From: Thermodesulfobacteriota bacterium
GTDB taxonomy: Bacteria > Desulfobacterota_D > UBA1144 > Nemesobacterales > Nemesobacteraceae
Direction: 5' to 3'
DNA: 64,000 bases
NCBI GenBank assembly: GCA_965204035.1
Contig: OZ241964.1
Span: 1,167,933-1,231,932, forward strand
A model generated the notes under the pieces. It saw only the letters and a program-made list of their open reading frames with translations, had not been told where the DNA came from and ran no database searches. Position 1 is the first letter of the stretch; every line of letters begins with the position of its first letter. The position numbers were made by a program, and so were the translations under genes. Positions 9,740 to 32,422 of the stretch are shown piece by piece.

Positions 9740-9790
9740 AAGACCAGACTTCGGGCATATTCTTGCCAGGAACTATAACGGAGAAACGCA

Positions 9791-11137
9791 ATGAACGGGC
9801 AAAAGCCGATAGTGGCCATAGTCGGAAGACCGAATGTCGGCAAGTCCACCCTTTTTAACAGGATAATAGGGTGGAACAAAACGATAGTAGAGGACATCCC
9901 CGGCGTCACAAGAGACAGGGTCTATGAAGACACCCGATGGAAGGAAAAGGAGTTCACCCTGGTTGACACCGGAGGACTTTCCCTCGGCGAAGACGACCAG
10001 GACTATTCTCTCATAAAAGAGCAGATAGACGCCGCTATCTCGGAAGCGGATCTCGTGGTGATGCTCTTTGACGGCAGGGACGGGGTCATGCCCCAGGATT
10101 CCGAAATAGTGCGGTATCTTCGAAAGACCGAAAAAAAAGTCATCTACGCCGTAAACAAAATCGACCATGGGAACATAAAGCAGGTGCTGAAAACATACGA
10201 ATTCTACGGTACGGGCACGGATGATCTCATGGCGATTTCCGCGCTTCACAACAAAAACATCTACGAACTCGTGGAGCAGATCGCTTCCTGCATAGAAACC
10301 TCCGGGCAGCCGGAAGAAGAACCCGAAGGATCCGAAGAGACGAGAATCGCCGTCATCGGCAAACCCAACGTCGGGAAATCCACGCTGGTGAACAGGATAC
10401 TCGGAGAACAGAGACTCATAACAAGTTCCACCCCCGGGACGACCCGCGATTCCATTGACTCCGTATATGAAAAAGACGGGAAGAAATACGTCTTCATCGA
10501 TACCGCGGGCATAAGAAGAAAGTCGAGGATAGACGCCCCGGTTGAAAAACACAGCGTTTTCCGGGCAATAAGGTCCATCGAAAGAGCCCACATCGTGCTG
10601 CTGATGATAGACGGTCAAGAAGGCCCGACCCACCACGACTCGCGCCTCGCGGAACTGATTAAAGGCAGAAACAGGGCCATTATAATACTGCTTAACAAGT
10701 GGGACCTTGCCCCCGAGGACATAGCGGACCCCAAAGAGGTCGAAGAGGTGACGAAGGAAAAACTGATCGGGGTTGACTACGCCCCCGTGCTGACCATCTC
10801 CGCTCTTACCGGCAAGAAGGTCGGGAAAATCTTTGACGCCGTCGAGCGGGTGGAGAACAATTTCAGAAAAAAGATATCCACGGGAAAGCTGAACAGGTTC
10901 CTTGAGGACCTTACAAAACGCCACCCTCCCCCGGTCTACAGAAGGAAGGAAATCAAGTTTTTCTACATCTCACAGCCTCTTACCGCGCCGCCGACATTCA
11001 CGATCTTCACCAATTCGGCAAAGGGCATCCCGGAGAACTACAGAAGGTTCCTTGAGAACAAGCTAAGGGAGTACGCGGACTTCGAGGGATCTCCCCTCAG
11101 GCTTCTGTTCCGGGACAGGGAAGGAAAGGAAGTCTAG
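9791..11137 (+). CDS. der: Ribosome-biogenesis GTPase Der (EngA), two tandem GTPase domains
   Basis: Two G1 motifs (GRPNVGKST, GKPNVGKST), DTGG/DTAG and NKxD motifs, and a KH-like C-terminus. A GGAGA RBS lies upstream. Confidence 0.95.
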   Translation: MNGQKPIVAIVGRPNVGKSTLFNRIIGWNKTIVEDIPGVTRDRVYEDTRWKEKEFTLVDTGGLSLGEDDQDYSLIKEQIDAAISEADLVVMLFDGRDGVMPQDSEIVRYLRKTEKKVIYAVNKIDHGNIKQVLKTYEFYGTGTDDLMAISALHNKNIYELVEQIASCIETSGQPEEEPEGSEETRIAVIGKPNVGKSTLVNRILGEQRLITSSTPGTTRDSIDSVYEKDGKKYVFIDTAGIRRKSRIDAPVEKHSVFRAIRSIERAHIVLLMIDGQEGPTHHDSRLAELIKGRNRAIIILLNKWDLAPEDIADPKEVEEVTKEKLIGVDYAPVLTISALTGKKVGKIFDAVERVENNFRKKISTGKLNRFLEDLTKRHPPPVYRRKEIKFFYISQPLTAPPTFTIFTNSAKGIPENYRRFLENKLREYADFEGSPLRLLFRDREGKEV

Positions 11138-15477: not shown

Positions 15478-16250
15478 ACTGCCCTTCTGGCCGATTTCCT
15501 TTCGGGGAAAAAGGAGGTCTTGCCTCCGTAAGCCTTCATGAGGTTCTCGGAATTAAACACCTCATCCACCCTCCCCGAGGCCACAAGCCCCACATTCAGA
15601 ATGGCGATCCGCTCGTAGTACTCGGAAACGGTGTTAAGGTCGTGATGAACCGCGAGCACGGTCTTTCCCCAGGCGGCGAGTTCCTTCAGTATCCTGACTA
15701 TCGCTTTTTCAGTCGTGGCGTCAACGCCCTGGAAGGGTTCATCCAGAAGATAAACCGACGCACTCTGGACAAGAGCTCTCGCGAGAAAGACTCTCTGCTG
15801 CTGTCCTCCGGAGAGCTGGCTTATCTGCCTCTGGGCAAACTCAAGCATATCGACTTTCTCAAGAGCGCCGAGCGCCTTTTCATGTTCCCGTTTTCCGGGA
15901 CGCCTTATCCAGCCCAGATCTCCGTAACTCCCCATCTTCACCGTATCCACTACGGAGGTGGGAAAATCCCAGTCCACAGAACCTCTCTGGGGAACGTAAC
16001 TCACTTCCTTTCTTTGTCTCTCGTAAGGTTTGCCGTGGATTGAGACGACCCCCGCGACGCGCGGAACAAGTCCCTGGATGGATTTTATCAGCGTTGTCTT
16101 GCCGGCGCCGTTTGGTCCAACGACGGCGACCATCGACCCGCTCGGAATCTCAAGATCTATATCCCAGAGAACGGTCTTGTCGCCGTAAGCGACGGTAAGG
16201 TCCGTCACACGGACAGCCGGAACGGCCGGATTCTGCTCTCCGCTGCTCAT
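15474..16250 (-). CDS. Metal ABC transporter ATP-binding protein (MntA/ZnuC/TroB-like)
   Basis: Walker A GPNGAGKTT, ABC signature LSGGQQQRV, Walker B LLDEP. Overlaps its neighbours by 1-4 nt. Confidence 0.9.
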   Translation of the reverse strand: MSSGEQNPAVPAVRVTDLTVAYGDKTVLWDIDLEIPSGSMVAVVGPNGAGKTTLIKSIQGLVPRVAGVVSIHGKPYERQRKEVSYVPQRGSVDWDFPTSVVDTVKMGSYGDLGWIRRPGKREHEKALGALEKVDMLEFAQRQISQLSGGQQQRVFLARALVQSASVYLLDEPFQGVDATTEKAIVRILKELAAWGKTVLAVHHDLNTVSEYYERIAILNVGLVASGRVDEVFNSENLMKAYGGKTSFFPERKSARRAV

Positions 16251-17233
16251 TACCCGTCTCCGGCGGCTTCGGCTTTGGAGTCAGCAACCTCGATGCTGCG
16301 GACAAGAGACTCAACGATAGTGTCCACATTGCTTCTGAACATCCCTATGTAGCTGCCCTCTTCCGTTCCCGGGCTGCCCATTGAATCCGAGTAAAGGCTG
16401 CCGCCTATCCGGACATCAAAACCTCTTGCCTTCACCGAGGCCCGGAGGGCGCGCATGTATCTGGGGGAAATGGATGTTTCGACAAAAACTGCCGGAATTC
16501 TCCGCTCGGTGATCACCCTTGAGAGATTCTGTATATCCGCGACGCTCGCTTCGGAATCGGTACTTATTCCCTGAAGCCCCATTACCTCAAACCCGTAACC
16601 TCTTCCGAAGTAGTTAAACGCGTCGTGGGCCGTTATAAGCACCCTTCTTTCGTGGCTCACCGAGGCTATCTTCTTTCGTATGTAAGACTGCAAAAGGCTA
16701 AGTTCCTTGAGATAGGATTCGGCGTTCTGCCTGTAGATACCGGCGTTTTGCGGGTCGTAGAGCGAGAAGGCCTCCATGACAACCCTGGCCGCTTTTTTCC
16801 AGAGAGTGACGTCAAACCAGATATGCGGGTCGTAGTATCCTTCATATTCCTCGGGAGAAAGAAGCAGGGACTTGTCGATTCCCTCCGCGACGCCCACGGT
16901 GAATACCCCGCTTTTTTTCATCTGCGCAAGAACATCCGTAATCTTTCCCTCAAGGTGAAGTCCGTTATAAAAAATCATGTCGGCTCCGGCAAGCCTCTCC
17001 ACGTCCCCGGCACTTGCCTTGTAAAGATGCGGGTCAACCCCGGTTCCCATGAGGGAGATGACCTCCGCTTTTTCCCCGGCGACGTTCCTCACGAGATCTC
17101 CGATCAAGGCGGTGGTCGTAACCACTTTTATCGTGCCTTCCCTTTTTACGCTTCCGCTGCTTTCAGCGCAGGACGCGCAGAGCACCAGCAGCGCAGAAAG
17201 CAGAAAGAACCTTATGCCCGTTATCGTTTTCAT
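16250..17233 (-). CDS. Metal ABC transporter substrate-binding lipoprotein (cluster A-I, TroA/MntC/ZnuA family)
   Basis: Signal peptide plus lipobox (LCASC). SBP_bac_9-like sequence with conserved His/Asp metal ligands. Confidence 0.9.
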   Translation of the reverse strand: MKTITGIRFFLLSALLVLCASCAESSGSVKREGTIKVVTTTALIGDLVRNVAGEKAEVISLMGTGVDPHLYKASAGDVERLAGADMIFYNGLHLEGKITDVLAQMKKSGVFTVGVAEGIDKSLLLSPEEYEGYYDPHIWFDVTLWKKAARVVMEAFSLYDPQNAGIYRQNAESYLKELSLLQSYIRKKIASVSHERRVLITAHDAFNYFGRGYGFEVMGLQGISTDSEASVADIQNLSRVITERRIPAVFVETSISPRYMRALRASVKARGFDVRIGGSLYSDSMGSPGTEEGSYIGMFRSNVDTIVESLVRSIEVADSKAEAAGDG

Positions 17234-17244
17234 TTTTTCCTCTC

Positions 17245-17904
17245 TCAGTTGTTCGCTTTCTCAACCAGTATGTACTTGGCGGCGTTTCGCCCTATGGGGT
17301 GTTCCTTCCCGGTCAGCTCGATGATTATGGGACCCTTAAAAGGCTGCTTCGAGATAACCGTCATCTCGGTCTCGGGGTAAAGACCTATCCCGCCCAGATA
17401 ACGAAGCAGTTCCGGGTCATGATCGCTCACCTCAACCACTCTCACCAAGGTGTCGGGCTCCACATCCACAAGGGCGTCGCACTCCCTCACAATCATGGTG
17501 CCGTCCCGGCGCGGAATCGGCGAACCGTGCGGGTCGGTCACCGGATAACCCAGAAACTTGTCAATCCTGTCTTCAAGATCTTCTGAGAGCACGTGTTCCC
17601 ATTTCTCGGCCTCCTGGTGCACCTGGTCCCAGGGAACGCCGAGCGCCTCCTTGAGATAAAGCTCGATAAGCCGGTGATGTCTGATTATCTCAAGAGCTAT
17701 CTTCCTGCCAGAGGGAGTAAGCTTCACCCCCTGGTAGCGCTTGTGGGTTATGAGCTTTTTCTCCGAGAGCTTCTTCATCATGCTCGTCACCGAAGCCGGA
17801 GACACGCCCAGTTTTTCCGAAAGCGCGCTGGTCGAAACCTTTCCTTCGGAGGCCTCAACCTCGTAAATGGTCTTCAGGTAATCCTCTATTGATTGTGAAA
17901 GCAT
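17245..17904 (-). CDS. DtxR/MntR-family metal-dependent transcriptional repressor with C-terminal FeoA/SH3-like domain
   Basis: N-terminal wHTH (MLSQSIEDYLKTIYE...), metal-binding and dimerisation region, C-terminal SH3-like domain. First gene of the transporter operon. The ORF track extends further N-terminally to 18015. Confidence 0.9.
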   Translation of the reverse strand: MLSQSIEDYLKTIYEVEASEGKVSTSALSEKLGVSPASVTSMMKKLSEKKLITHKRYQGVKLTPSGRKIALEIIRHHRLIELYLKEALGVPWDQVHQEAEKWEHVLSEDLEDRIDKFLGYPVTDPHGSPIPRRDGTMIVRECDALVDVEPDTLVRVVEVSDHDPELLRYLGGIGLYPETEMTVISKQPFKGPIIIELTGKEHPIGRNAAKYILVEKANN

Positions 17905-17960
17905 CTTTTCTCTCTTTATCTCAGCGAAAACCGCCTGAGATTCAGACAGGCAAAAAAATA

Positions 17961-17977
17961 TTTTAGCCTTATCTAAA
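17961..17977. promoter_or_regulatory. Candidate metalloregulator operator: partial palindrome TTTTAGCCTTATCTAAA in the divergent dtxR / cyclotransferase promoter region
   Basis: TTTAG/CTAAA inverted repeat in an AT-rich intergenic region directly upstream of the dtxR-family gene. It resembles DtxR/MntR box half-sites. A separate GCCTG..CAGGC hairpin lies at 17933-17951. Confidence 0.3.
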
Positions 17978-18064
17978 TTTGTTTTTAATTCTAGCAAAAA
18001 CAAAACCGCTGTCAAGAAAAAACCGGGGTTTCTAAAGAGATATTTATGGCTTAGAATAAGCCCT

Positions 18065-18880
18065 ATGCGGAAGCAGTGTCATAAAAGAGTAAATCCCCTT
18101 GCGGTCACGGCAGGTCTTGTGTGCCTTTTTCTCCTTGTTTTTTCCTCATGTTTCACGACGGAAAACAAGGGGTATTATCCCGGCGGGACCACCTTCAGCG
18201 TGCTCTACTCTTTCCCCCACGACCTGACCGCTTTCACTCAGGGATTTGTCTACAGAGACGGTTTCCTTTATGAAAGTACCGGGCTTCACGGGAACTCGTC
18301 TCTTAGAAAAATCAACCCGGTCACGGGACAGGTACTTGCCAGGGTAGACCTTCCCGCGAGGTTTTTCGGCGAAGGTCTTACCATTATAGGCGACAGCATA
18401 TACCAGCTCACCTGGAGATCCAGGCAGGGTTTCATATACGACAAGGAGAGCCTGCGGCAGAAAGGGTCGTTTACCTATTTAACCGAAGGCTGGGGACTTA
18501 CCGACGACGGAACTCAACTCATAATGAGCGACGGAACCGAAAAACTGTATTTTCTTTCCCCCACGAACTTCGGGATAACGAGAATCTTAAGCGTAAAGGA
18601 GAATGGATCGGCGGTTACTATGCTTAACGAGCTTGAATACGTGGAGGGAAAAATCTACTGCAACATATGGCAGTCGGACGACATAGTGGTTGTAGATTCC
18701 TACAGCGGCATGGTGGAGAGACGGATAAACCTGGGGGAACTCAGGGAAAGGCTGAGTTTTCCGGACAGAGCGGGAGTGCTGAACGGAATTGCCTGGAAAT
18801 CCTCCTCCCGCACTTTCCTCATCACCGGAAAGAACTGGTCCGAGGTTTTCGAGATAAGATTCGGTTTCAACTACCCTTGA
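18065..18880 (+). CDS. Glutamine (glutaminyl-peptide) cyclotransferase family beta-propeller protein, lipoprotein
   Basis: Signal/lipobox (VFSSC). Sequence pattern of the plant/bacterial-type glutamine cyclotransferase family (YPHDLTAFTQGFVY..., GLTDDG, GIAW). Confidence 0.7.
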   Translation: MRKQCHKRVNPLAVTAGLVCLFLLVFSSCFTTENKGYYPGGTTFSVLYSFPHDLTAFTQGFVYRDGFLYESTGLHGNSSLRKINPVTGQVLARVDLPARFFGEGLTIIGDSIYQLTWRSRQGFIYDKESLRQKGSFTYLTEGWGLTDDGTQLIMSDGTEKLYFLSPTNFGITRILSVKENGSAVTMLNELEYVEGKIYCNIWQSDDIVVVDSYSGMVERRINLGELRERLSFPDRAGVLNGIAWKSSSRTFLITGKNWSEVFEIRFGFNYP

Positions 18881-18919
18881 AGCGGGAACCCAAGCGGGTA
18901 GACTCATTTTCCCTTCTGT

Positions 18920-18993
18920 GTCCCCGTAGCTCAGTTGGATAGAGCGCAGGATTCCTAATCCTGAGGCCGCAGGTTCGAATCCTGCCGGGGACG
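18920..18993 (+). tRNA. tRNA-Arg (anticodon CCT)
   Basis: Hand-folded cloverleaf: acceptor GTCCCCG/CGGGGAC, D-arm GCTC-AGTTGGATA-GAGC, anticodon stem CAGGA/TCCTG with loop TTCCTAA, T-arm GCAGG-TTCGAAT-CCTGC, discriminator G. CCA is not encoded. Confidence 0.9.
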
Positions 18994-19008
18994 CGCCAGC
19001 AAGAAACC

Positions 19009-19701
19009 CTACGAAAAAAGCTGCCTGAATATCATCCAGATGATCTTCACCCCGGCCATAAAACTTCCCGTGATTGTTCCGGTTATCTTTGAAGTCCCCA
19101 TTCTCTTTCTGTAACTCACCGGAACCTCGGCGCAGCGGAGTCCTTTCTTCGCGGCCTTTATCTGCATCTCAACCGTCCATCCGAAAGTCCTGTCTCTCAT
19201 GCCGAGAGAAAGGAGCTTGTCGTATCTTATTGCCCTGAAGGGACCAAGGTCGGTAAAGCTCACCCCGTAAAACAGTTTTATAAGCCTGGTAGCCACGTAG
19301 TTGCCGACAAGGGCCTGGGGCAAAAGCGCGCCTTTCTGTCTTTCGCCGATGGTTCTTGACCCTATGACGAGGTCGTATCCGTCCTCGGTTATCGGTGAGA
19401 TAAGGTCTTTCATTTCTCCTGGATAATCAGAATAGTCTCCATCCAGAAATACCATGATATCAGGCACATATGAAGAACTCTTAATGTAACTTATCCCCGC
19501 AAGGCAAGCCTGTCCGTACCCCATCCTCCCCTCGTCTATGACCGTGGCTCCAGAGTCCGAGGCAACCTGCGCGGTGGAGTCGGTCGAGCCGTTGTCGACA
19601 ACCACTATCTCCGTTGCGAGGTCCCGGGGAATATCCCCGATCACCTGCCCTATGGAGCGCTCTTCGTTAAGCGCCGGGATGATTACGACCGTTTTTTTCA
19701 T
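19009..19701 (-). CDS. GT2-family glycosyltransferase (polyprenol-phosphate/dolichol-phosphate mannosyl- or glucosyltransferase-like)
   Basis: N-terminal GT-A motifs: IIPALNEE, VVVDNGSTD and the DxD motif FLDGDYSD. Confidence 0.85.
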   Translation of the reverse strand: MKKTVVIIPALNEERSIGQVIGDIPRDLATEIVVVDNGSTDSTAQVASDSGATVIDEGRMGYGQACLAGISYIKSSSYVPDIMVFLDGDYSDYPGEMKDLISPITEDGYDLVIGSRTIGERQKGALLPQALVGNYVATRLIKLFYGVSFTDLGPFRAIRYDKLLSLGMRDRTFGWTVEMQIKAAKKGLRCAEVPVSYRKRMGTSKITGTITGSFMAGVKIIWMIFRQLFS

Positions 19702-22791: not shown

Positions 22792-25758
22792 TTACAAGCG
22801 GCCGGTCTTTCTGGTCACCCCGTCTTTAACCCTGCAAAGATCCCTGTAATCGCAATAGGAACAGGGATGGTTCTTTGACATGTAGAGAGCATGTTCCTCC
22901 TGGTCAAGCTCCTTTTTCCCCACGTAGGGAGGGAAAAAACCATTTTTTATGCACTTTATGTAGTGGTGGCTGAGTAAAACCGCCTCGTCAAAAGAAGAGT
23001 CCTTGGGCAAAGAGCTGTTGTCAGCAGGCCTGCTGATTGAAAGATAACGGCCCCAGGAGGGGACAAAGCCCTCCTCGCACAGCGCTCTCAGGTAAAGCGG
23101 GAGTTGCAGATTTTCAAAATCAAAATATTTTCTGTCCCGCACCCTTCCGATCTTGTAGTCAATAACCGCGACGTTCCGCTTGTGAACGTCGACCCTGTCC
23201 ACTTTCCCTCTTATTACCGCGTCGGCTATGCGGAACTCCACTTCCTTTTCAAAAAACCGGGGAGCGTGCTCATCTTTTTCGATCCTTAAAACCTCGTCCA
23301 TTATAAAATTCGGCAGGATGCGCTCAAAGAATCTCTTCTTCTCAATTTCCGCAACGTTTTTTGGAAGATGGGAGAAAACGCCGGGCTTGGCTTCATGTTT
23401 CTTTTTTATGTCCTCATAAGCCTCAAGAAACCGGTCGGCCTCAACAGAACCGGAGCCCTCGGCGAAAACAGTTTCCATCAGCTCTTTCAGCATATTGTGA
23501 GCGAGCGAACCCAGGTCAAGCTGGGAAGCCCTCTGCTCATCGATATCTCCAGGCGCCTTGAGCCCGAGCACTCTCCTGGAAAAATACCTGAATGGGCACG
23601 TCCCATACTCCTCAAGCTCGGTGGGCGAGAAGGAATCCCGTTTTGGAGGGCTGCCGAGCAGAACACCTTCAAAACCCGTATAGGCCCCCGTGAGCTCCAG
23701 TCTCCGCCTCTCCGCGGAAATACCGCCGGAGAGATGAGCGACTATATCGGAACCATAGTGCCGCTTGAGGACCTCTTCAATCTTCGGGTCTCCATAACCC
23801 GCACCAGAGGGTGAGAAGCAGTGAAACAGGGCGTCTTCCCTTGAAAATGCCTCAGAGCCCGGAGTCGCAGGAGAAACCTCCATCCCCTCAAGGAAATCGG
23901 AGCGGGCTATCTCCTTTGATCTCTCGTCGTAGCGGAAGCGGGAGAGAAACACCTTCTCGGAAGCCGAAACGCCGAGAGTGAAAAAGATATGCTTTTCCTT
24001 CTCGTAATGGAGACCTTCCTCGTCAAACACCCTTTTTCCAAGCGCTCTGTTTATCTCCGCCTTCTCCCTGGGTTTCAGCACGGGGTCTGCCGGGGGAAGA
24101 GACGGGAAAGAAGCATCCGAAAGCCCCAGGAGGAAAACAAACCCGGGGTTTATGCCGCGCGCCGCGGAAAAATCAATAACGCTTACCCTTTCCGAATCGG
24201 CGTCGCAGGGAGTTTTATATGGAACTGTCCTCTCGCCCATAAACTCATCCAGGAGGAAAAGATATTCTCCGGAGTCAGAAACCCGGAAATCAAACTCGCC
24301 GTAAGAAAAGGAAAGCTCTCTCAGGAAAGAGAAAAACTCATCGAAACACTCCCTGGTAGTTTTATTCTCCTCTATAAGCACCGCGGAACTCTCGGAAACC
24401 CTGAGTTCCGAGAAGATCTTTCTGAGATCAGAGGTCATCGCGGCAAAACTCCTTCTGCCGAACTTCGACGATAAAGAATCAAGCACGAAGGCTATATTGC
24501 GGGCAGCCGAGGACATCCGGCCGTCCTGCTCCACTATATGCTCCAAGATCCTCTTCCAGCCCGTAATGCCGCTTACGGTCCTGTATTTGAGGTCCGCGGA
24601 GGAGAGCCCCTTTATCATGTTAACGCAACGGTGCGAGGATTCAGACTCTCCCAGGTAGAGGGCAAAAAACGGGTTGTGAAGAAGTCCCATCAGATCGTTT
24701 CTGTGAAAATTGCCTGACTTAAGGCGCAGAATATCACCCGCAAGGCGTCCGTATGCGCTTCCCGCCAAGGTCCCGGAATTCCCGAGATCGACCGCAACCC
24801 CGTTTTTCTCGAATATACGTACTATGGATCGGCCGCGCCTCTGCGCTGACTTCACGAGAACCTTAAAATCAGAGGCCTTGTGCTCCCCATCCAATATGAG
24901 CTTCTTGATCGTCCTTGAGACATATTCAATTTCGTCGTGAGAGTCGCGAAACTCGCTGAGCTCCCTTTTTGTCTCGCCTCCTGGAATTTCCTTTGTCATC
25001 GTAAAATCTTCTTCATAGGCCAGAGAAGCTTCGCTTAGCTTGTCTAGAAAGCTGTCTTTGTATTCGTCCAGGTCGCCGAAATCGCTTAGGAAGAAGAAGG
25101 TTTCTGAAACCACCGAGGAGAGGCTCTTTATCACGTCAAGTTCGCAGAGGGTAAAATCGGAGAAACCGAAAACCACAAGTCTCTTTGCAGACGGGAAGAA
25201 CGGAGTAAGTCCTTCTCCGTCCAGTTCTTCTGAAACGACACGGACAGAATCCGCGTCGTCAAGAAAGCCTCTTTCCGCTACGAGCGCTTCGTATCTTTTG
25301 TAAACAAGCCCTATATCCGAGAGTTTTTTTCGAAGACCACGCGTTTTGATTCTCTTAGCGGAACCGGCAAGCTCCTCCACGGATACCTTGCTCTGCTTAA
25401 GTCTTGAAAGAATGGAAGCTGCGGAGTTAAGAAAGTCCCGGTTCTGGGAGAATTCCCCGAAAACCTCAAGGTCCCCCGATACCACCTCCGCCGCTTTTCT
25501 GGTTACGGATAAGACCTGGGTCCTTGATATCCTCTTCTTTTTCAGGTTCGGGGAGGCCTCGTTTACAAAATCGGAAAGTTCATAGAACGTGAGCAGGTTT
25601 TTTCCCCATACTCCTTCCCTAGAGTAATAATCCTCTATTTCCTGTACAACCGAGACGCCGGGGAGAAGGAAGAGGGTTGTCTCATCGCTCGGGTTAAGCC
25701 CGTATTCTTTGAAAAGATTTTTGAAAGTGAGTTCTTTGGGGTGATAAATGACTTTCAT
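22792..25758 (-). CDS. addB: ATP-dependent helicase/nuclease subunit B (AddB/RexB) with C-terminal Fe-S nuclease domain
   Basis: Adjacent and co-directional with addA. The C-terminal cysteine cluster (CPFRYF ... CSYCDYRDLC) and DYK motif are typical of the AddB nuclease/Fe-S domain. Confidence 0.85.
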   Translation of the reverse strand: MKVIYHPKELTFKNLFKEYGLNPSDETTLFLLPGVSVVQEIEDYYSREGVWGKNLLTFYELSDFVNEASPNLKKKRISRTQVLSVTRKAAEVVSGDLEVFGEFSQNRDFLNSAASILSRLKQSKVSVEELAGSAKRIKTRGLRKKLSDIGLVYKRYEALVAERGFLDDADSVRVVSEELDGEGLTPFFPSAKRLVVFGFSDFTLCELDVIKSLSSVVSETFFFLSDFGDLDEYKDSFLDKLSEASLAYEEDFTMTKEIPGGETKRELSEFRDSHDEIEYVSRTIKKLILDGEHKASDFKVLVKSAQRRGRSIVRIFEKNGVAVDLGNSGTLAGSAYGRLAGDILRLKSGNFHRNDLMGLLHNPFFALYLGESESSHRCVNMIKGLSSADLKYRTVSGITGWKRILEHIVEQDGRMSSAARNIAFVLDSLSSKFGRRSFAAMTSDLRKIFSELRVSESSAVLIEENKTTRECFDEFFSFLRELSFSYGEFDFRVSDSGEYLFLLDEFMGERTVPYKTPCDADSERVSVIDFSAARGINPGFVFLLGLSDASFPSLPPADPVLKPREKAEINRALGKRVFDEEGLHYEKEKHIFFTLGVSASEKVFLSRFRYDERSKEIARSDFLEGMEVSPATPGSEAFSREDALFHCFSPSGAGYGDPKIEEVLKRHYGSDIVAHLSGGISAERRRLELTGAYTGFEGVLLGSPPKRDSFSPTELEEYGTCPFRYFSRRVLGLKAPGDIDEQRASQLDLGSLAHNMLKELMETVFAEGSGSVEADRFLEAYEDIKKKHEAKPGVFSHLPKNVAEIEKKRFFERILPNFIMDEVLRIEKDEHAPRFFEKEVEFRIADAVIRGKVDRVDVHKRNVAVIDYKIGRVRDRKYFDFENLQLPLYLRALCEEGFVPSWGRYLSISRPADNSSLPKDSSFDEAVLLSHHYIKCIKNGFFPPYVGKKELDQEEHALYMSKNHPCSYCDYRDLCRVKDGVTRKTGRL

Positions 25759-25812
25759 CTAGCAGAGAAACGCTGGAATCCTAAGGAAGACCGCTTTTGC
25801 GGTTGAAAACCC

Positions 25813-26016
25813 TCAAGTAGCAGAACCTGTCGAGTAAATTATATCTGAACTGTGAGAAGATTGATTAAGTTTTAAATATTCTTTCATCAATTGAATAAAT
25901 TGGAAGGCCAGAACGCGCCTCGCCGCCCATTCGGTCGTTTCCTCGTAGATTCCTTGTTCTTTAAGGAAGTCCTCAAATAGTGTGCCGACTTTTCCCCTCT
26001 TAATATTTGCAGTCAT
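25813..26016 (-). pseudogene. Truncated XRE-family HTH antitoxin remnant (HigA/RelE-partner type)
   Basis: The N-terminus (GKVGTLFEDFLKEQGIYEETTEWAARRVLAFQFIQLM) matches the conserved N-terminal region of XRE antitoxins. The HTH region is replaced by unrelated residues and the ORF ends after 67 aa. Confidence 0.4.
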
Positions 26017-26031
26017 TGAAGCATCCTGAAT

Positions 26032-26412
26032 TCAGGAAATTTGCTGAGCCAGAATTCTAAGCCAGTCAGCAAGTTCCCTTTCCTCAATAATGCCTTGGGC
26101 GGCTTTAATCATCATGTCACCAGCTTCCACAGTGTCAAAATCCAGTTCTATACCGTTTATAGTCAAGCAGGTATCCATGGCCTTAAATGCGGTTCTCTTG
26201 TTACCGTCATTAAACGCATGACCAACTGCAATACAACAGGCGTAACAAGCGGCGAGTTCAAATACATCTTCGACCATGTCGTAGGCAACACGGTTGTCAA
26301 CACGGGCTAAAACGGACTCAATGGACTTGTTCAGGGCCATGCCTTGCAGTTCGTCAGGTCCAAGAACCTGCTCATGCATGGCAATCACCTTCTCGGGTGA
26401 TAGATATTTCAT
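26032..26412 (-). CDS. doc: Doc (death-on-curing) toxin, Fic-fold kinase family
   Basis: The Fic/Doc motif GHAFNDGNKR is present. 126 aa. Lies immediately downstream of a small acidic ORF. Confidence 0.85.
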   Translation of the reverse strand: MKYLSPEKVIAMHEQVLGPDELQGMALNKSIESVLARVDNRVAYDMVEDVFELAACYACCIAVGHAFNDGNKRTAFKAMDTCLTINGIELDFDTVEAGDMMIKAAQGIIEERELADWLRILAQQIS

Positions 26413-26414
26413 GC

Positions 26415-26663
26415 TTATTTATCTTTGAGGTAATCCAGTATCGGCTGTATCTTGTCTTTGCGTTTTGCAATAGCCGCATCAACTTCGTCGGGATCAGCAA
26501 GTTCAAAGCGGGATTCATCCACGACGGAATTGGTGGTCGAAGAGTCCCTGGGTTCATCACTGTCCAAAACAGCTAGAGATTCGTCGCCAGCTTTTTTGGC
26601 AACTTTTTCAGGATTGCCGAGATCACTCAGCAATGCGGTTTTTTCAGTCAACTTGTCTCCCAT
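26415..26663 (-). CDS. Putative antitoxin of the Doc toxin (non-canonical, acidic/disordered; not obviously Phd/YefM)
   Basis: 82-aa ORF ending 3 nt before the doc start, which is the typical antitoxin-toxin arrangement. The sequence is low-complexity and acidic. Confidence 0.5.
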   Translation of the reverse strand: MGDKLTEKTALLSDLGNPEKVAKKAGDESLAVLDSDEPRDSSTTNSVVDESRFELADPDEVDAAIAKRKDKIQPILDYLKDK

Positions 26664-26883
26664 TACAACCTCACTGTCTTGTGACTACAAATATATGGAA
26701 CTTCACCCGAAATATCAACTGAGATATCCCTAGGTATGATGATTTGATATAGAAAGTAAATTGACAAGATTTTGAATAAATACCAGAAATTTAAGAAAGG
26801 CCGTTTTTCTGAACTCTATCTTTCCGCTCCCACAGGAACCCGTAACGAGAAGATTCTTCCGACCCCGTTCTGACAGGAAGGTC

Positions 26884-27108
26884 ATGTACTCCAAGCGAAT
26901 CATGGGAATTATCCTTGAGAATGTCGCCAAAGGTTTCACGGTTTATACCCATGAGCATAAAAGCTACTCGGGCTTGGAGAAAAAGGGATATGAGCACGGA
27001 ACCGTCCATCACTCCGCCGGTGAGTATGTAAAAGGCATGGCTCATACAAACGGCATCGAGTCCTTCTGGGCGTTATTAAAGATAGGCTATTATAGCGTAG
27101 TCCGTTAA
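26884..27108 (+). mobile_element. IS1595-family (ISXO2-like DDE) transposase, C-terminal fragment only (remnant)
   Basis: FTVYTHEHKSYSGLEKKGYEHGTVHHSAGEYVKGMAHTNGIESFWALLK matches the conserved DDE_Tnp_IS1595 C-terminal block. The N-terminal approximately 250 aa are absent, and no inverted repeats were identified. Confidence 0.75.
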
Positions 27109-27233
27109 GCACCTCCAGAGATACATAGACGAATTCTGTGGCAGGTATAATGTTCGTCAGATAGACACTATGGACCAGGTAGGTTCAACTATTCACGGGC
27201 TCATGGGAGCGAAGAAGCTTACCTACAAGGAGT

Positions 27234-30200
27234 TTGTCTCTGGATAGTCTCCATCCTGTATTCCAAATGAGAACAGCAATGATAGACACTGACAATGCAC
27301 TTAAACATCTTGCGGAAGCAAGAAAATACCACGAAAAAGAAATAGAAGTTCAGACCGAGTTGAAATATATGTTCAAGTCTCTCGGCATGGGTCCGGTACT
27401 TGCGAGGTCTGTAGGGAAACGTGAGGCGGACATTCACATAACGGACTATAACTGCGTTGTTGAAACCAAGGCCACAGGCAAAGCGAACCCGGAGGCAAGA
27501 GGGTCCCGAGGGGAAACCCAGAGAGCACAGCTTTGCTCATATGTTGATGGCTTGAGAGAAAACCTGAGGGGGGAGTTTGATTTTGAAGAAATAGCGGAAA
27601 AACCTTGGGTGGGAATTCTTACCGATGGGCAATCCGGATGGGTATGGAAATGGGAAAATGAGAGTGTGAGGCACCCCAAAGAACTAGGGAATCTCAGATG
27701 GAATGAGAGCGACATAGATACAAAGGTCTTAAAAAACACCCGCATAGCTCTTGGTGACACTCCTGTGGGCAAGCAGTGGGCTGACCCTGAAGAAATATAT
27801 GAAATATTCCGTAGAGACGAGCAGGAATTTTACTCCCTCTACGACGAACTTACAAAAGACCCTGGTCAGCAAATAAGAACGAAGTTCAAACTTTGGCTTG
27901 AGAGGTTGCGAGGGTCGGGCATGGCCCCCGAACATGAACTGCACCAGCACAACTTGTTTGTGAAGCACTGTTTTCTTGTGGCTGTGGCAAAGGCGGTTAT
28001 CGCAGCTCTTACGCCCAAAACATATGATGATGACCCTGAGATTGTACTGGGGGAAGGATTTACAGCGTGGTTGGTCGAAAGCGACGAGGGGATTGAGAAG
28101 AGCAAAGCTCTTTTTGAAAAGGCTCGGAATTACAATTGGCGTTTCCGATTCGGAGACGTGCTCAGAAATCTTTATGAGCAGTGCATTGATAAGTCTGACC
28201 GTAAAATATACGGTGAATACTACACGCCGGACTGGATTGCGGAGCAGATGGCGGAAGAGATTCTCGATGATGACTGGATAGAGTCCGCGGCGACTGCGGC
28301 GCTTAAGAGTCTTAAGGGCGATGGGAAAGCTTTAAACGGTATCGGCGTGCTTGACCCCGCTTGCGGGTCCGGGACTTTTCTCTACCATGCCGCCCGACGC
28401 ATCTCAGGAGCTAATATCCTGAGGACGGTGCCGCCCGGAAAACGCGCCTTGGCCGTGGCGAGGCTTGTGCATGGGATTGACATCCATCCAGTCGCAGTTG
28501 AGATGGCAAAAGCGACCCTGCTTAGAGCTCTCCCCCCCCCCCATTTCGGCGCGGAACTTCTCTACGCTTCTTAATATAACGCAGGGAGACAGCCTGCTTG
28601 CGACTGAGATTCAGGAAGGATTGTACAAGGAAGTTGTCGAACTTGTTTCCCCCAAGGGCAAGGAATTCAGGCTTCCTCGTAGGGTAATCAGAAATCCAGA
28701 ATTCAGGAACTTTTTACCTAAACTTGTAGAAGCCGCATGTGATCATTCTCCTGTTCCCGATGAGGTGCCTGAGGAGTTAAGAACTTCCCTTCAATCATTT
28801 CTAAAATCCCTTACAAAAATTATTGACGATGAGGGAGACAGCGTCTGGACGTGGTATATCCTGAATACTCTTGGCCCTTCTTCTCTTGCTGAAAAGAAAG
28901 TGAACAGGATACTTGCCAATCCGCCGTGGGTTCGGGTGAGCAACATTCAAGTAGAAAGCAGGAAGAGAGAAGTTGAAAGTATGGCGAGGAAGCTTGAATT
29001 ATGGGTTGGAGGAAAGAATGCGACAGGATTTGATATTGCTGCATTGTTTATACATCGGTGCGGAAACCTGTATCTGGGCGAGCGAATAAGCAGAGCGGCG
29101 TGGATAACAAACAATGCTGCTATTAAAGGCGGAAACTGGGAGGGGTTTCACAAGCGACATGGAAAATTCCTTACGCAGATAATTGACTATGGTGAGTTAA
29201 AGGAACAGCCTTTTCACGGTGCGAAGTCATGTGCGTTGATAGAGGATAAGCCCCCAACGCCGAAAACAGAGTTGTCCCGATTGGTAAATGCGGAAGGAAA
29301 AATAAATCGTTACCAAAAATGGGCAGAAATCCGAGACGTTACTTATTTGGAACCGGCACCAGAACCAATTCCAAAAGGAGAATCAGAGTATTTTGGCAAG
29401 TTCAGGCAAGGTGCCACAATAGTTCCCTATTGCTTATTAGTAATTGAGGAAATGCATAAGGACAAAGGCGGACAGGTAATGATTAAGATGCAAAAATCCC
29501 GTCAGAATCCTTGGAGGAACATAAAACCTCAAAAAGGAACGGTTCCAGAAAAATGGATAACTTCATGTATTTTTCCAAACGATCTATTGCCCTTTGCACT
29601 TCGTCCTGAGACCACTCAAGCACTCATCCCTCTTGGAGAAAATGGACTCCTTGAAGAGAATCCTGATAAAGAGCCATACTGGTCTATGGCAGACAAAATA
29701 TATAAAGAAAATCGGGGAAAGGGCAAGATAACTCCTCACACTCTACTGAATCAAATTAATTTTAGTTCTAAGCTTGAGAAACAACTCCCAATTACAAGAG
29801 GGAGCCCGAGTTTATGGAGAATTGTATACAATAGTTCTGGACAGCATTTGAGAGCATCTAGGTGTGGTGGATTAAAGGCTGTAGTGCAACATGCGTTATA
29901 CTGGTGGGAGGCTGGAAGTGAAGAAGAGGCACAATACCTAGTAGGGCTTCTCAATGCACAATGCCTCCAAGACGCATACAGAGAATGTAGACAGACCGAC
30001 AGACACTTTACAACACATATATGGAACGGTGTCCCAATTCCATGCTACAACCCTGAAAACGACCACCACAGAGAACTTGCGGGTCTCTGTCTTGAGGCCG
30101 AGAATTTCGTTGGAGGGATTCTTGGGGAGTTAGATTTTAGTTGCAGGCAAGAAAAACTCTCAATGCAGATAAAAGACGCATTGAGACGGGTTGGAATCTC

Positions 30201-30252
30201 TGAACAAATTGACAAAGTTGTAAAAAAAATTCTGCCAGAACAAGCTAGGTAG
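27234..30252 (+). pseudogene. MmeI-like Type IIL/IIG restriction-modification enzyme (N-terminal PD-ExK nuclease, gamma-class N6-adenine methyltransferase, C-terminal target-recognition domain). Frameshifted at a poly-C tract into ORFs 27234..28574 and 28465..30252
   Basis: ORF1 carries a D-x9-E-x-K motif (DYNCVVETK), methyltransferase motif X (YGEYYTPDW) and motif I (LDPACGSGTFL). ORF2, in the +1 frame, carries motif IV (NPPW) and a long C-terminal region. The two frames meet at a homopolymeric C run (at least 11 C), and a 1-nt length change would fuse them into a protein of about 1,000 aa. Confidence 0.75.
28531..28542. repeat. Homopolymeric poly-C tract (at least 11 C) at the frameshift point of the RM gene: candidate slipped-strand phase-variation switch
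   Basis: Directly visible in the sequence (…gagctct CCCCCCCCCCC atttcgg…). ORF1 and ORF2 overlap exactly here. Confidence 0.9.
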
Positions 30253-30297
30253 AATAATCCTTCCACTTTCTTACCTCTGAGAACAAGGTGACCTGTA

Positions 30298-30534
30298 TTA
30301 TCCGAAAACTCGGTGGCGCTCAATGCCGGACAACAAGGCCACCAAGCAGATAATTCCCGACATGAGCGAGTATCCCAACGTTACTACCTCATGCGGAAGA
30401 AGTTTGCGGCTTGACGGATAGCATTCGATATCCGGGTCCCGAACAGCACGAACGATGGCCACACTCAGCATGGAGATTCGCCCCCTGAGCGGTTCCGATT
30501 TACGGTTCGTCTTGTCCAGACTGTTCATCGCCAC
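30298..30534 (-). CDS. Orphan small ORF (78 aa), no recognisable family; possibly non-coding
   Basis: The only ORF in a 290-nt gap between the RM gene and a secreted-protein gene. No motifs recognised. Confidence 0.2.
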   Translation of the reverse strand: MAMNSLDKTNRKSEPLRGRISMLSVAIVRAVRDPDIECYPSSRKLLPHEVVTLGYSLMSGIICLVALLSGIERHRVFG

Positions 30535-30545
30535 GCTACTTCAAA

Positions 30546-31019
30546 TTATTTAACTTCCGGAATCCTTTGAAGAATATGTATCTTCTTCGCCTTCATGATG
30601 TTCTTGCGCTTGGAAAGAAAATACCTTTTATGCTTGCTGTAGCGACCCCAGATCCTTACCCTGCTCCCGTTTTCAACGCCTTCCACGAACCCTCTTGCGT
30701 AAACGTTTATTCTTTTTTCCGGATCATTCTCAAAGAACTGAAACAGGGTGAACTTCCTTCCGTTCGCCATTCTCTTGAACCGCAGATCACCCACCTGCCC
30801 CTCGAGCGTGAATATTTTCCTATGAAACTCATCGCGGGAGGAGAGAACCTGCGAGATGGTTACGGCCGGCGGTTCAAGTTCTCCAATGTCGGTATAGGTC
30901 TTGTAGACCTCTTCTTTTCCGTAAGAAGAAACCGGAATCGCCAAAAAAAGCAGAAAAACTAAAAGAAAATTTCTCATTCTTCCAACCGCCGAAAATACCC
31001 TGTACCACCAAGCGGCCAT
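30546..31019 (-). CDS. Secreted OB-fold protein, YgiW/BOF (DUF388)-like
   Basis: Signal peptide MRNFLLVFLLFLAIPVSSYG. The body (VTISQVLSSRDEFHRKIFTLEGQVGD…RVRIWGRY) fits the BOF/YgiW periplasmic OB-fold pattern. Confidence 0.55.
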   Translation of the reverse strand: MAAWWYRVFSAVGRMRNFLLVFLLFLAIPVSSYGKEEVYKTYTDIGELEPPAVTISQVLSSRDEFHRKIFTLEGQVGDLRFKRMANGRKFTLFQFFENDPEKRINVYARGFVEGVENGSRVRIWGRYSKHKRYFLSKRKNIMKAKKIHILQRIPEVK

Positions 31020-31033
31020 CCGGGCCCATGACG

Positions 31034-32422
31034 CTATGAAACCGGCTTTGTCATCGACAGCGGGTCAAGGACCCTGTCAAGCTCCTCGTCTGAAAGCACT
31101 CCCTTTTTCCTAGCAACTTCCCTCACCGTGCTGCCCGAAGCGTAGGCTTCCTTCGCAATCGCGGCCGCGTTGTCATAACCTATGATCGGCGCGAGGCTGG
31201 TGCACATGGCGAGGCTCTGCTCGATGATCTCCCCGCAGCGCTCCTCGTCCGCCTCTATTGCGGAGATGCACTTGTCGACAAACACGGTGCAGACCCTGGA
31301 TAAAAGCCTTATCGACTGAAGGAGATTATCCGCCATCATCGGCATCATAACGTTAAGCTCGAAATTCCCCGACTGCCCTCCGATCGTTATCGCCGCGTCG
31401 TTGCCGATCACCTGGGCCGCGACCTGCGTAACCGACTCCCCGATCACGGGGTTAACCTTCCCCGGCATAATGGACGAACCCGGCTGTATCGCGGGCAGAA
31501 GGATCTCTCCGAAGCCGCAGCGCGGACCGCTTCCAAGCCAACGTATGTCGTTTGCTATCTTGATGAGGCTCACAGAGACCGTCTTGAGAGCTCCGCTTGT
31601 CTGGACGACCGCGTCCTTTGACGCCTGGGCCTCGAAGTGGTTCTTAGCCTCCCTGAACTTAACCCCGGTGGCTTCGCTTATCCTTGCCGCCACCTTCTTT
31701 CCGAAATCCTTGTGGGTGTTTATCCCCGTGCCGACAGCGGTGCCTCCTATTGCAAGCTCCGAGAGTTCGGTTCTTACCCCCTTTAATCTTGAGATTCCGT
31801 GATCGACCATACTCGCGTACCCGCTGAACTCCTGGCCGAGCCGTATCGGGGTGGCGTCCATAAGGTGGGTGCGCCCTATCTTCACTATGCGGTCAAACTC
31901 CTTTGCCTTTTTGGAGAGAGCGTCTCGAAGGTACTCAAGGGACGGTATGAGGTCTTTTTCTATCGCCTCAAGGGAAGAGACATGCATGGCCGTGGGAATC
32001 ACGTCATTGCTTGACTGGCCCATGTTCACGTGGTCGTTCGGATGCACCCGGGTCTTTCCCTTGAGCATCTCGGTCGCCCTGTTGGCTATCACTTCATTCG
32101 TGTTCATGTTGGTCGAGGTGCCGGAACCCGTCTGGAAGACATCCACCACGAAATGATCGTCGAGTTTTCCGTCGACAACTTCCCGCGCGGCCCGCGCTAT
32201 GGCCCGCGCCGCGCCTTTCTTCAGATATCCGAGTTCTAAGTTTGTATGCGCGGCGGCCAGCTTCACAAGACCCATCGCCCTTATGAATTCCCTTGGAAGA
32301 GTGCGTCCGCTCACGGGAAAATTCTCAACCGCTCTTGCCGTCTGCGCCCCGTAGTAAGCGTCCGAGGGAACTTTCATCTTTCCCATCGAGTCGGATTCCA
32401 CCCTGTATTTCGTCTTAGCCAT
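31034..32422 (-). CDS. Class II fumarate hydratase / aspartate ammonia-lyase family enzyme (AspA or FumC; not resolved)
   Basis: Signature GSSIMPGKVNP. N-terminus KYRVESDSMGKMKVPSDAYYGAQTARAVENF. 462 aa. Confidence 0.9.
   Translation of the reverse strand: MAKTKYRVESDSMGKMKVPSDAYYGAQTARAVENFPVSGRTLPREFIRAMGLVKLAAAHTNLELGYLKKGAARAIARAAREVVDGKLDDHFVVDVFQTGSGTSTNMNTNEVIANRATEMLKGKTRVHPNDHVNMGQSSNDVIPTAMHVSSLEAIEKDLIPSLEYLRDALSKKAKEFDRIVKIGRTHLMDATPIRLGQEFSGYASMVDHGISRLKGVRTELSELAIGGTAVGTGINTHKDFGKKVAARISEATGVKFREAKNHFEAQASKDAVVQTSGALKTVSVSLIKIANDIRWLGSGPRCGFGEILLPAIQPGSSIMPGKVNPVIGESVTQVAAQVIGNDAAITIGGQSGNFELNVMMPMMADNLLQSIRLLSRVCTVFVDKCISAIEADEERCGEIIEQSLAMCTSLAPIIGYDNAAAIAKEAYASGSTVREVARKKGVLSDEELDRVLDPLSMTKPVS

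Follow-up and report, generated by a model that had tools for sequence, protein, structure and literature searches.

Switching of restriction-modification (RM) genes by homopolymeric tracts is textbook biology in Campylobacter, Helicobacter, Neisseria and Haemophilus. In C. jejuni, a poly-G tract switches the Type IIG enzyme encoded by cj0031 (Anjum et al. 2016, PMC4889913), with effects on phage restriction and methylation (PMC4889913), and this tract is present in only some alleles of its homology group (PMC8355987). The H. pylori enzymes JHP1272 and HP1353-HP1354 (Hpy99XIV and HpyAXVI) are likewise Type IIG, with a suggested assignment to Type IIL (Krebes et al. 2014, PMC3936762); in them, the first of the poly-C repeats, which encodes PPPP, acts as the on/off switch of the gene, and repair of the frame restored methylation (PMC3936762). 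Changes in repeat length within an open reading frame (ORF) also switch the methyltransferase in the Type III mod and Type I hsd phasevarions, which are common in REBASE-wide surveys (Atack et al., PMC5909438, PMC7383803). Here we analyze an RM gene (positions 27279-30252) in a 64,000-nt stretch of contig OZ241964.1 (assembly GCA_965204035.1), from the uncultured lineage Candidatus Dadabacteria; this whole stretch is referred to below as the window. The gene is interrupted by a run of 11 cytosines, and we put at roughly 0.75 the probability that it is a phase-variable contingency locus, the expression of which would be gated by this poly-C tract within its methyltransferase domain.

Like the RM gene studied here, Cj0031 combines nuclease and methyltransferase in a single Type IIG gene and carries an intragenic G/C homopolymer; it belongs, however, to a different protein lineage and to a host-adapted pathogen, and its switching, its motif (CCCGA/CCTGA) and its phenotype have been shown experimentally. 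JHP1272 has its switching tract in the target-recognition region, and its specificity is altered by a second one, whereas the present gene has a single tract, in the methyltransferase domain between motifs I and IV. A tract position shared with JHP1272 was considered and rejected for this reason, the H. pylori tract being in the target-recognition domain (PMC3936762), and the resemblance is therefore analogous and not positional. The Type III and Type I phasevarions are multi-subunit systems, mostly of host-adapted pathogens and often switched by tetra- or pentanucleotide repeats, in contrast to a single-chain Type IIG enzyme in an uncultured lineage.

An earlier note on this DNA had reported a single RM gene split into two overlapping ORFs at a run of at least 11 C, at about 28531-28542. 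The split is confirmed, in that the two ORFs (27234-28574 and 28465-30252) meet only at the tract; direct reading and a script scan of the window refine the run to exactly 11 C, at 28532-28542. The gene is laid out as follows.

27279-28574, plus strand: N-terminal frame in the OFF state. It encodes the predicted PD-(D/E)XK nuclease, then a helical domain, and finally motifs X and I in the first half of a gamma-class N6-adenine methyltransferase; the stop is a TAA 30 nt past the tract.
28532-28542, plus strand: C11 homopolymer, the proposed slipped-strand switch, encoding a proline run after VEMAKATLLRAL; C11 would be OFF, C10 or C13 ON.
28543-30252, plus strand: C-terminal part, its frame shifted by +1 against that of the N-terminal part. 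It encodes the remainder of the methyltransferase with motif IV, then a TaqI/CamA-like target-recognition region, and a helical domain at the C-terminus; the stop is the TAG at 30250-30252.

Apart from the C11 run, no G/C homopolymer in the 64-kb window reaches 8 nt, the runner-up runs being 7 nt long, and an independent, identically distributed model of base composition predicts 0.035 runs of at least 11 per window. The likely true start of the gene is the ATG at 27279 (MIDTDN), which matches the start of its homologues; an ATG at 27267 and a TTG at 27234 are alternatives. In two relatives (L002 and L018) an ORF of 202/217 amino acids (aa) precedes the gene, and it was rejected as a part of it, homology beginning at the MIDTDN ATG. 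When tract lengths were simulated, C10 or C13 joined the two frames into one ORF, which measures 1005 aa when read from the TTG, 994 aa from ATG 27267 and 990 aa from ATG 27279, while C9, C11 and C12 left the window allele out of frame. The expectation that a change of one C in either direction would fuse the frames is therefore half right: only the loss of one C, or the gain of two, restores the frame, and the gain of one leads into the third. The broken gene is also what public annotation of this genome contains, since database protein P0137 (431 aa) is identical to the product from 27279 and, starting with MYKEVV, the annotated C-terminal ORF, P0141 (543 aa), has the same sequence as the window. 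The tract is the sole lesion in the RM gene of the sequenced genome, and every catalytic motif is intact. As the earlier note had remarked, the gene is poor in GC (0.464, the window as a whole having 0.519). A scan for promoters and terminators revealed neither a strong plus-strand promoter directly upstream of the gene nor an excess of terminators.

The evidence that carries the argument for a switch comes from the relatives of this gene. A homologous tract of 9-12 C occupies the same codon position in L001, L002, L005, L018, L020-L023 and L024. The DNA of the relatives was retrieved; lengths C9, C10, C11 and C12 were verified in it, and C12 and C13 were additionally deduced from protein ends. 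The alleles are listed below with their tract and the state that it sets, ON standing for an intact frame and OFF for a broken one.

Window: CTC before the tract and ATTTCGG after it; C11, OFF.
L018 and L019: flanks identical to those of the window; C12, OFF (third frame).
L024 and L025 (a TARA metagenome): tract followed by ATAAAATTTCGG; C10, ON (1005 aa).
L001: tract followed by GAAAAATG; C11, ON (992 aa).
L020-L023 (four contigs from three datasets, L020 being a 2.14-Mb contig labelled 573x): tract followed by GAAAAATG; C10, OFF.
L002 and L003: tract followed by GTGAATG; C11, OFF.
L005 (a metagenome-assembled genome of Candidatus Dadabacteria): tract followed by TCCAG; C9, OFF.
L004, L006 and L007 (sister alleles): no tract, CCT CCT TTG CCA, CCA CCT GTC and CCT CCT GTC, respectively; ON, intact.

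The three sister alleles thus encode Pro-Pro by mixed codons, and all of them are intact. At finer scale, the 90%-identity clusters contain three 992-aa ON proteins of the L001 type (C11) together with at least six 424-aa proteins ending in PPPRKM/I, which is the simulated C10 product of that type; the ends of P0122 and P0124 are those of the simulated C12 and C13 products of L001-type alleles. ON and OFF alleles are hence interleaved within clusters, and public metagenomes alone yield an allelic series of one gene running from C9 to C13 in both states. One pair is equally telling, for over 300-nt segments around the tract L018 agrees with the window at 99-100% identity, yet it has C12 where the window has C11. 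In each OFF allele tested, a change of one C gave a full-length ORF with no further stop or frameshift. Moreover, in 266 kb of related DNA all G/C runs of 8 nt or more fall in Type IIG-like genes. A DNA pattern search for the tract flanks in Joint Genome Institute (JGI) metagenome contigs returned no match, and a profile scan of JGI metagenome contigs recovered distant relatives only (35-42% identity, 57-73% GC), in the RM genes of which there is no G/C run of 8 nt or more; a scan of genome contigs yielded a single relative, L005.

An intragenic tract that sets the frame, polymorphic in length, found in both states and accompanied by no other lesion, is what a contingency locus would present, and the pattern as a whole (conserved tract, variable length, ON and OFF alleles, no secondary lesions) corresponds, as far as sequence comparison can tell, to the standard genomic signature of phase variation. 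The earlier note had proposed a comparison of orthologous loci as a means of telling a switching gene from a plain pseudogene, and its outcome favours the switch.

The product of the gene is predicted to be one Type IIG restriction-modification enzyme of about 990 aa. Its domains run from an N-terminal PD-(D/E)XK nuclease through a helical linker and a gamma-class N6-adenine methyltransferase to a TaqI/CamA-like recognition region. Sequence, motifs and structural model agree in placing a nuclease and an N6-adenine methyltransferase in one chain, as in Type IIG enzymes, and the tract-corrected protein matches the PADLOC model REase_MTase_IIG (PDLC03630) at 2.4e-37. Searched against a large protein collection, the fused protein returned more than 4,200 matches; among the 120 listed, most are about 1000 aa long and cover 94-100% of the query, the closest being 79, 73 and 70% identical. 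These intact full-length homologues bear out the earlier description of a single polypeptide of about 1,000 aa, and the four motifs that it had named are all present, each with residues that are invariant in an alignment of 51 family members.

27429-27470, plus strand: PD-(D/E)XK catalytic residues D55...E66-x-K68 (EADIHITDYNCVVETK), all three invariant in the 51 members.
28212-28229, plus strand: methyltransferase motif X, GEYYTP, with G316, E317, Y319, T320 and P321 invariant.
28353-28379, plus strand: methyltransferase motif I (S-adenosylmethionine-binding), DPACGSGTF, with D363, P364, C366, G367, S368, G369 and T370 invariant; aligns to the MmeI chain 5HR4.
28918-28929, plus strand: methyltransferase catalytic motif IV, NPPW, with N551, P552, P553 and W554 invariant; it lies 3' of the frameshift.

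An AlphaFold model built on the 51-sequence alignment (mean predicted local distance difference test score, pLDDT, 88.3; predicted template modelling score 0.80) places D55 in strand 52-58 and E66 and K68 at the end of strand 63-67. The prolines encoded by the tract (residues 423-425) lie in a surface loop of lower pLDDT that leads from helix 408-421 to strand 436-439 of the methyltransferase domain, and the length of this loop varies across homologues.

The more specific label of an MmeI-like Type IIL enzyme, which had also been proposed, stands as a description of domain architecture and is too narrow as a statement of family. The fused translation matches MmeI only weakly, and only in the methyltransferase motif X-I region: Pfam MmeI_Mtase reaches 28.7 bits (cutoff 27), N6_Mtase and Eco57I also give weak matches to the methyltransferase core, and MmeI_hel, MmeI_TRD and MmeI_C give none. 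Across 11 clade members, Pfam finds Eco57I in all 11, a weak MmeI_Mtase in 10, TaqI_C in four and MmeI_N in one, and MmeI_hel, MmeI_TRD and MmeI_C in none. The best match in a profile search of PDB sequences is indeed MmeI (5HR4; E 2.7e-6), with similarity confined to about 100 residues, and in a structural search CamA, M.BseCI, PglX and DrdV all outrank it. The placement of the nuclease residues in the model does follow that of the MmeI family (equivalents of D70/E80/K82, with D in strand 2 and ExK ending strand 3). Membership of the MmeI family has been defined by E < 1e-20 together with similarity over the whole length (Morgan et al. 2009, PMC2731913), and the fused protein lacks such similarity; we therefore file the gene in a large Type IIG family for which no characterised member was found among the database matches, the source naming them only 'N-6 DNA methylase'. 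The protein would pair an MmeI/DrdV-like domain order with a TaqI/CamA-like recognition region. Its sequence identity to DrdV (Type IIL, PDB 7LO5/7LVV), CamA and M.BseCI is 12-19%, and the latter two, gamma-class methyltransferases with a TaqI-like recognition domain, differ from it in having no nuclease domain. We know of no homopolymer switch in DrdV, CamA or M.BseCI. An NCBIfam scan of the fused protein gave nothing above cutoffs, with weak similarity to PglX of BREX (bacteriophage exclusion) systems in the methyltransferase core only. A BREX identity was rejected because the gene is a single-chain fusion of nuclease and methyltransferase and has no BREX genes as neighbours. Nor does a second methyltransferase gene adjoin it in the window or in most related loci.

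If the locus is a switch, slipped-strand mispairing during replication would presumably add or remove C residues; this mechanism, its rate and its reversibility are inferred. In the window allele, the full enzyme would result from any length n with n mod 3 = 1 (C10, C13), and three or four prolines would then sit in a surface loop that tolerates them; with other lengths translation would stop 8-10 codons past the tract. The sequenced genome, at C11, would be in the OFF state, and its product a 431-aa fragment, presumably inactive, made of the nuclease domain and half of the methyltransferase. Since NPPW lies downstream of the frameshift, motif IV would not be made in this state, and a fragment without motif IV and the recognition region would be expected to lose both methylation and targeted cleavage. 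ON cells would methylate and restrict, with a role in phage defence and possibly in methylation-dependent gene regulation; OFF cells would be unprotected but open to foreign DNA, and the gene would serve as a contingency locus across the population. The enzymatic activity, specificity and biological benefit invoked here are likewise inferred.

The most serious competing explanation is that the tract is a mutational hotspot without adaptive switching, a fragile run that suffers repeated and effectively irreversible knock-out, and that the copy in the window is a young pseudogene. This we consider unlikely, though several observations weigh in its favour and against a switch. Fourteen of 18 distinct N-terminal variants are OFF and four ON, counted as distinct protein sequences and not as independent strains, and this ratio is compatible with frequent one-way inactivation, as is the fact that three of the four tract-bearing allele types first examined were OFF; random tract lengths, on the other hand, would leave about two thirds of alleles OFF anyway. 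The L020-L023 strain type is C10 and OFF in contigs from at least three datasets, consensus assemblies showing the majority tract length only. The L005 tract is interrupted, with C9 and then TCC, the RM gene is absent from sister genomes, and its surroundings are those of a mobile context in decay, with a truncated and frameshifted IS1595 transposase on one side and a truncated small ORF on the other. Against a pseudogene stands the finding of a second lesion in none of the OFF alleles over about 3 kb, along with the occurrence of ON among OFF alleles within 90%-identity clusters. The tract has also lasted: in a neighbour-joining tree of N-terminal halves (without support values) six tract-bearing alleles form one clade, with L005 outside, across which the tract persists at up to about 20% amino-acid divergence and a synonymous divergence (dS) of about 0.8-1.1. 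Pairwise ratios of nonsynonymous to synonymous divergence (dN/dS) of 0.06-0.20 in both gene halves, OFF-OFF pairs included, show both to have apparently evolved under purifying selection, with the reservation that dS is near or above saturation in many pairs, so that these ratios mostly reflect ancestral branches and speak mainly for long-term constraint.

There are two further explanations, both of which we regard as very improbable. One holds that the tract length is a sequencing or assembly error, the true length being C10 or C13 and the gene intact. Several platforms are indeed prone to errors in homopolymers of at least 10 nt, and the names of related contigs (ptg..., ctg..._NNx) resemble the output of long-read assemblers, as far as names can tell. 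Tract lengths nevertheless agree between independent assemblies of the same or other samples (L002 with L003, L018 with L019, L024 with L025, and L020 with L021, L022 and L023), and because different sources reproduce them an error is unlikely; the 573x label of the L020 contig, the occurrence of OFF alleles in both alternative frames on scaffolds from several assembly sources, and the split proteins P0137 and P0141 in the public annotation of the same genome point the same way. The other explanation is recoding, by which the C11 allele would yield some full-length enzyme, and so a control of dosage, through +1 ribosomal slippage on CCC-C or through transcriptional slippage. CCC-C is a classic +1-prone site for tRNA-Pro, long homopolymers promote slippage of RNA polymerase, and a +1 shift at a run of CCC codons is exactly what would bring the window allele into frame. 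However, L018, L002 and L020 need the other shift, and a single programmed shift could not serve OFF alleles in both wrong frames. In an Rfam scan covering 25000-31500, neither a frameshift stimulator nor any other RNA element was detected. Close relatives have intact alleles in frame, so that a requirement for recoding is not conserved. Recoding is possible as a leak from a gene that would, in our reading, be switched by its tract.

Homopolymeric switching of RM genes has rarely been documented in uncultured environmental lineages, and here a familiar switch would operate in an unfamiliar group, uncultured and non-pathogenic. To our knowledge, Candidatus Dadabacteria have small genomes and are not known as a group of pathogens. 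One TARA metagenome contig suggests a marine setting for the lineage, and our results suggest a role for contingency loci in the phage defence, and possibly in the methylomes, of marine or sponge-associated bacteria with small genomes. The protein family, which has more than 4,000 database matches, no characterised member having been found, and is distinct from MmeI, may be a source of new specificities. For annotators, gene pairs of this kind, which pass for a 'split methylase', are best read as one switchable gene, and the coexistence of ON and OFF populations offers a natural experiment for assigning an N6-methyladenine (m6A) motif to the enzyme.

The gene sits in an islet that differs between strains; the earlier note had placed it in a defence and mobility islet. 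The other features of the islet are given below; the genes of the window include fumarase, an AcrB-like pump and AddB.

25769-30552, no strand: strain-variable, low-GC islet (GC 0.45-0.48) between addB and the gene adjacent to fumC; besides the RM gene and an IS1595 remnant it contains a small ORF and a Doc/Fic toxin accompanied by an antitoxin-like gene.
26032-26412, minus strand: Doc/Fic-family toxin, 126 aa (Pfam Fic, 1.5e-10).
26415-26663, minus strand: antitoxin-like gene, 82 aa, upstream of the toxin (from the ORF list).
26908-27241, plus strand: what is left of an IS1595-family transposase gene, covering residues 182-296 of 297 and frameshifted near 27100; identified by tblastn, the query being the intact transposase of L001, and by Pfam (DDE_Tnp_IS1595, 5.4e-14).

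The sequences on either side of the islet (36000-30553 and 25768-20000) have counterparts of 93-96% identity in two sister genomes, L026 and L027, in which 1.25 kb of other sequence replaces 25769-30552, so that the RM gene is not present there. L028 has a sulfate transporter and a Fic toxin at the islet position. An 82-aa gene is also seen at the equivalent position in L026-L028, with or without a Fic gene.

The transposase remnant ends about 25-35 nt before the start of the RM gene. In L001 an intact 297-aa IS1595 transposase (9073-9966) lies 35 nt upstream of the RM gene, and in L004 a shorter remnant, the last 54 codons (9801-9962), is linked to it, which makes three independent loci in which the RM gene adjoins the 3' end of a transposase gene that runs in its own direction. 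In the same islet of the sister strain L029, an intact IS1595 transposase (15905-16951) abuts a different, unrelated Type IIG-like gene (16954-19229; HSDR_N_2, N6_Mtase and Eco57I domains), which has a G10 tract of its own (19165-19174) coding for GGGG. This is possibly another phase-variable RM gene, and the end of the contig 55 nt past the tract is possibly an assembly break caused by heterogeneity of the tract. In the other loci homology stops within about 15-35 nt of the RM ORF, and around the transposase and RM gene of L001 no convincing pair of terminal inverted repeats was found; without enclosing repeats, the idea of a passenger gene comes down to linkage. The data nonetheless suggest that IS1595 elements carry RM cargo in the Candidatus Dadabacteria lineage.

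The recurrent IS1595 linkage and the second homopolymer-bearing Type IIG gene at the same islet add to the interest of the locus and open a wider, tentative and on balance doubtful, conjecture, namely that in Candidatus Dadabacteria homopolymer-gated Type IIG genes are interchangeable IS1595-linked cassettes at the fumC-addB islet, each with its own tract, kept by selection for evolvability. If true, different strains would have different Type IIG genes there, and this would amount to population bet-hedging of phage defence, or to a methylation-controlled phasevarion, outside host-adapted pathogens, the setting of most such switches described so far.

Elsewhere the RM gene is found among defence and toxin genes, in L002 (12875-17452), L018 (1-1176 and 6959-7302) and L004 (16844-23048), with neighbours that include HipA/HTH proteins, a gene containing Lamassu LmuB_C together with MC3/CTD7-domain genes, GmrSD, HEPN, SIR2 and DUF4020 proteins. 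To judge from this gene content, the RM gene appears to land recurrently in defence islands at different chromosomal sites.

Between the RM alleles of the window and L018, identity is 99-100% for the first ~2250 nt and drops to 68-80% for the last ~600-700 nt (29530-30252 of the window). This C-terminal difference is a mosaic replacement by recombination, with possible consequences for specificity or for contacts with partners.

Downstream of the RM gene, a small and very acidic ORF of about 50 aa is found in L004 (13121-13273) and L020 (7306-7476), the two copies being 72% identical to each other, with the consensus ...KQIxPDMSEFxIDDVxSIL...EKE..D; the window retains its first 17 codons only (30323-30373). 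Conceivably, it serves the RM gene as an accessory or regulatory partner. Also downstream, a small glycine-rich, zinc-ribbon-like gene is duplicated or rearranged in L021 (7052-7688; copies of 86 and 100 aa) and present as a single 91-aa copy in L020 (7052-7327), from the same sample, which indicates local structural heterogeneity.

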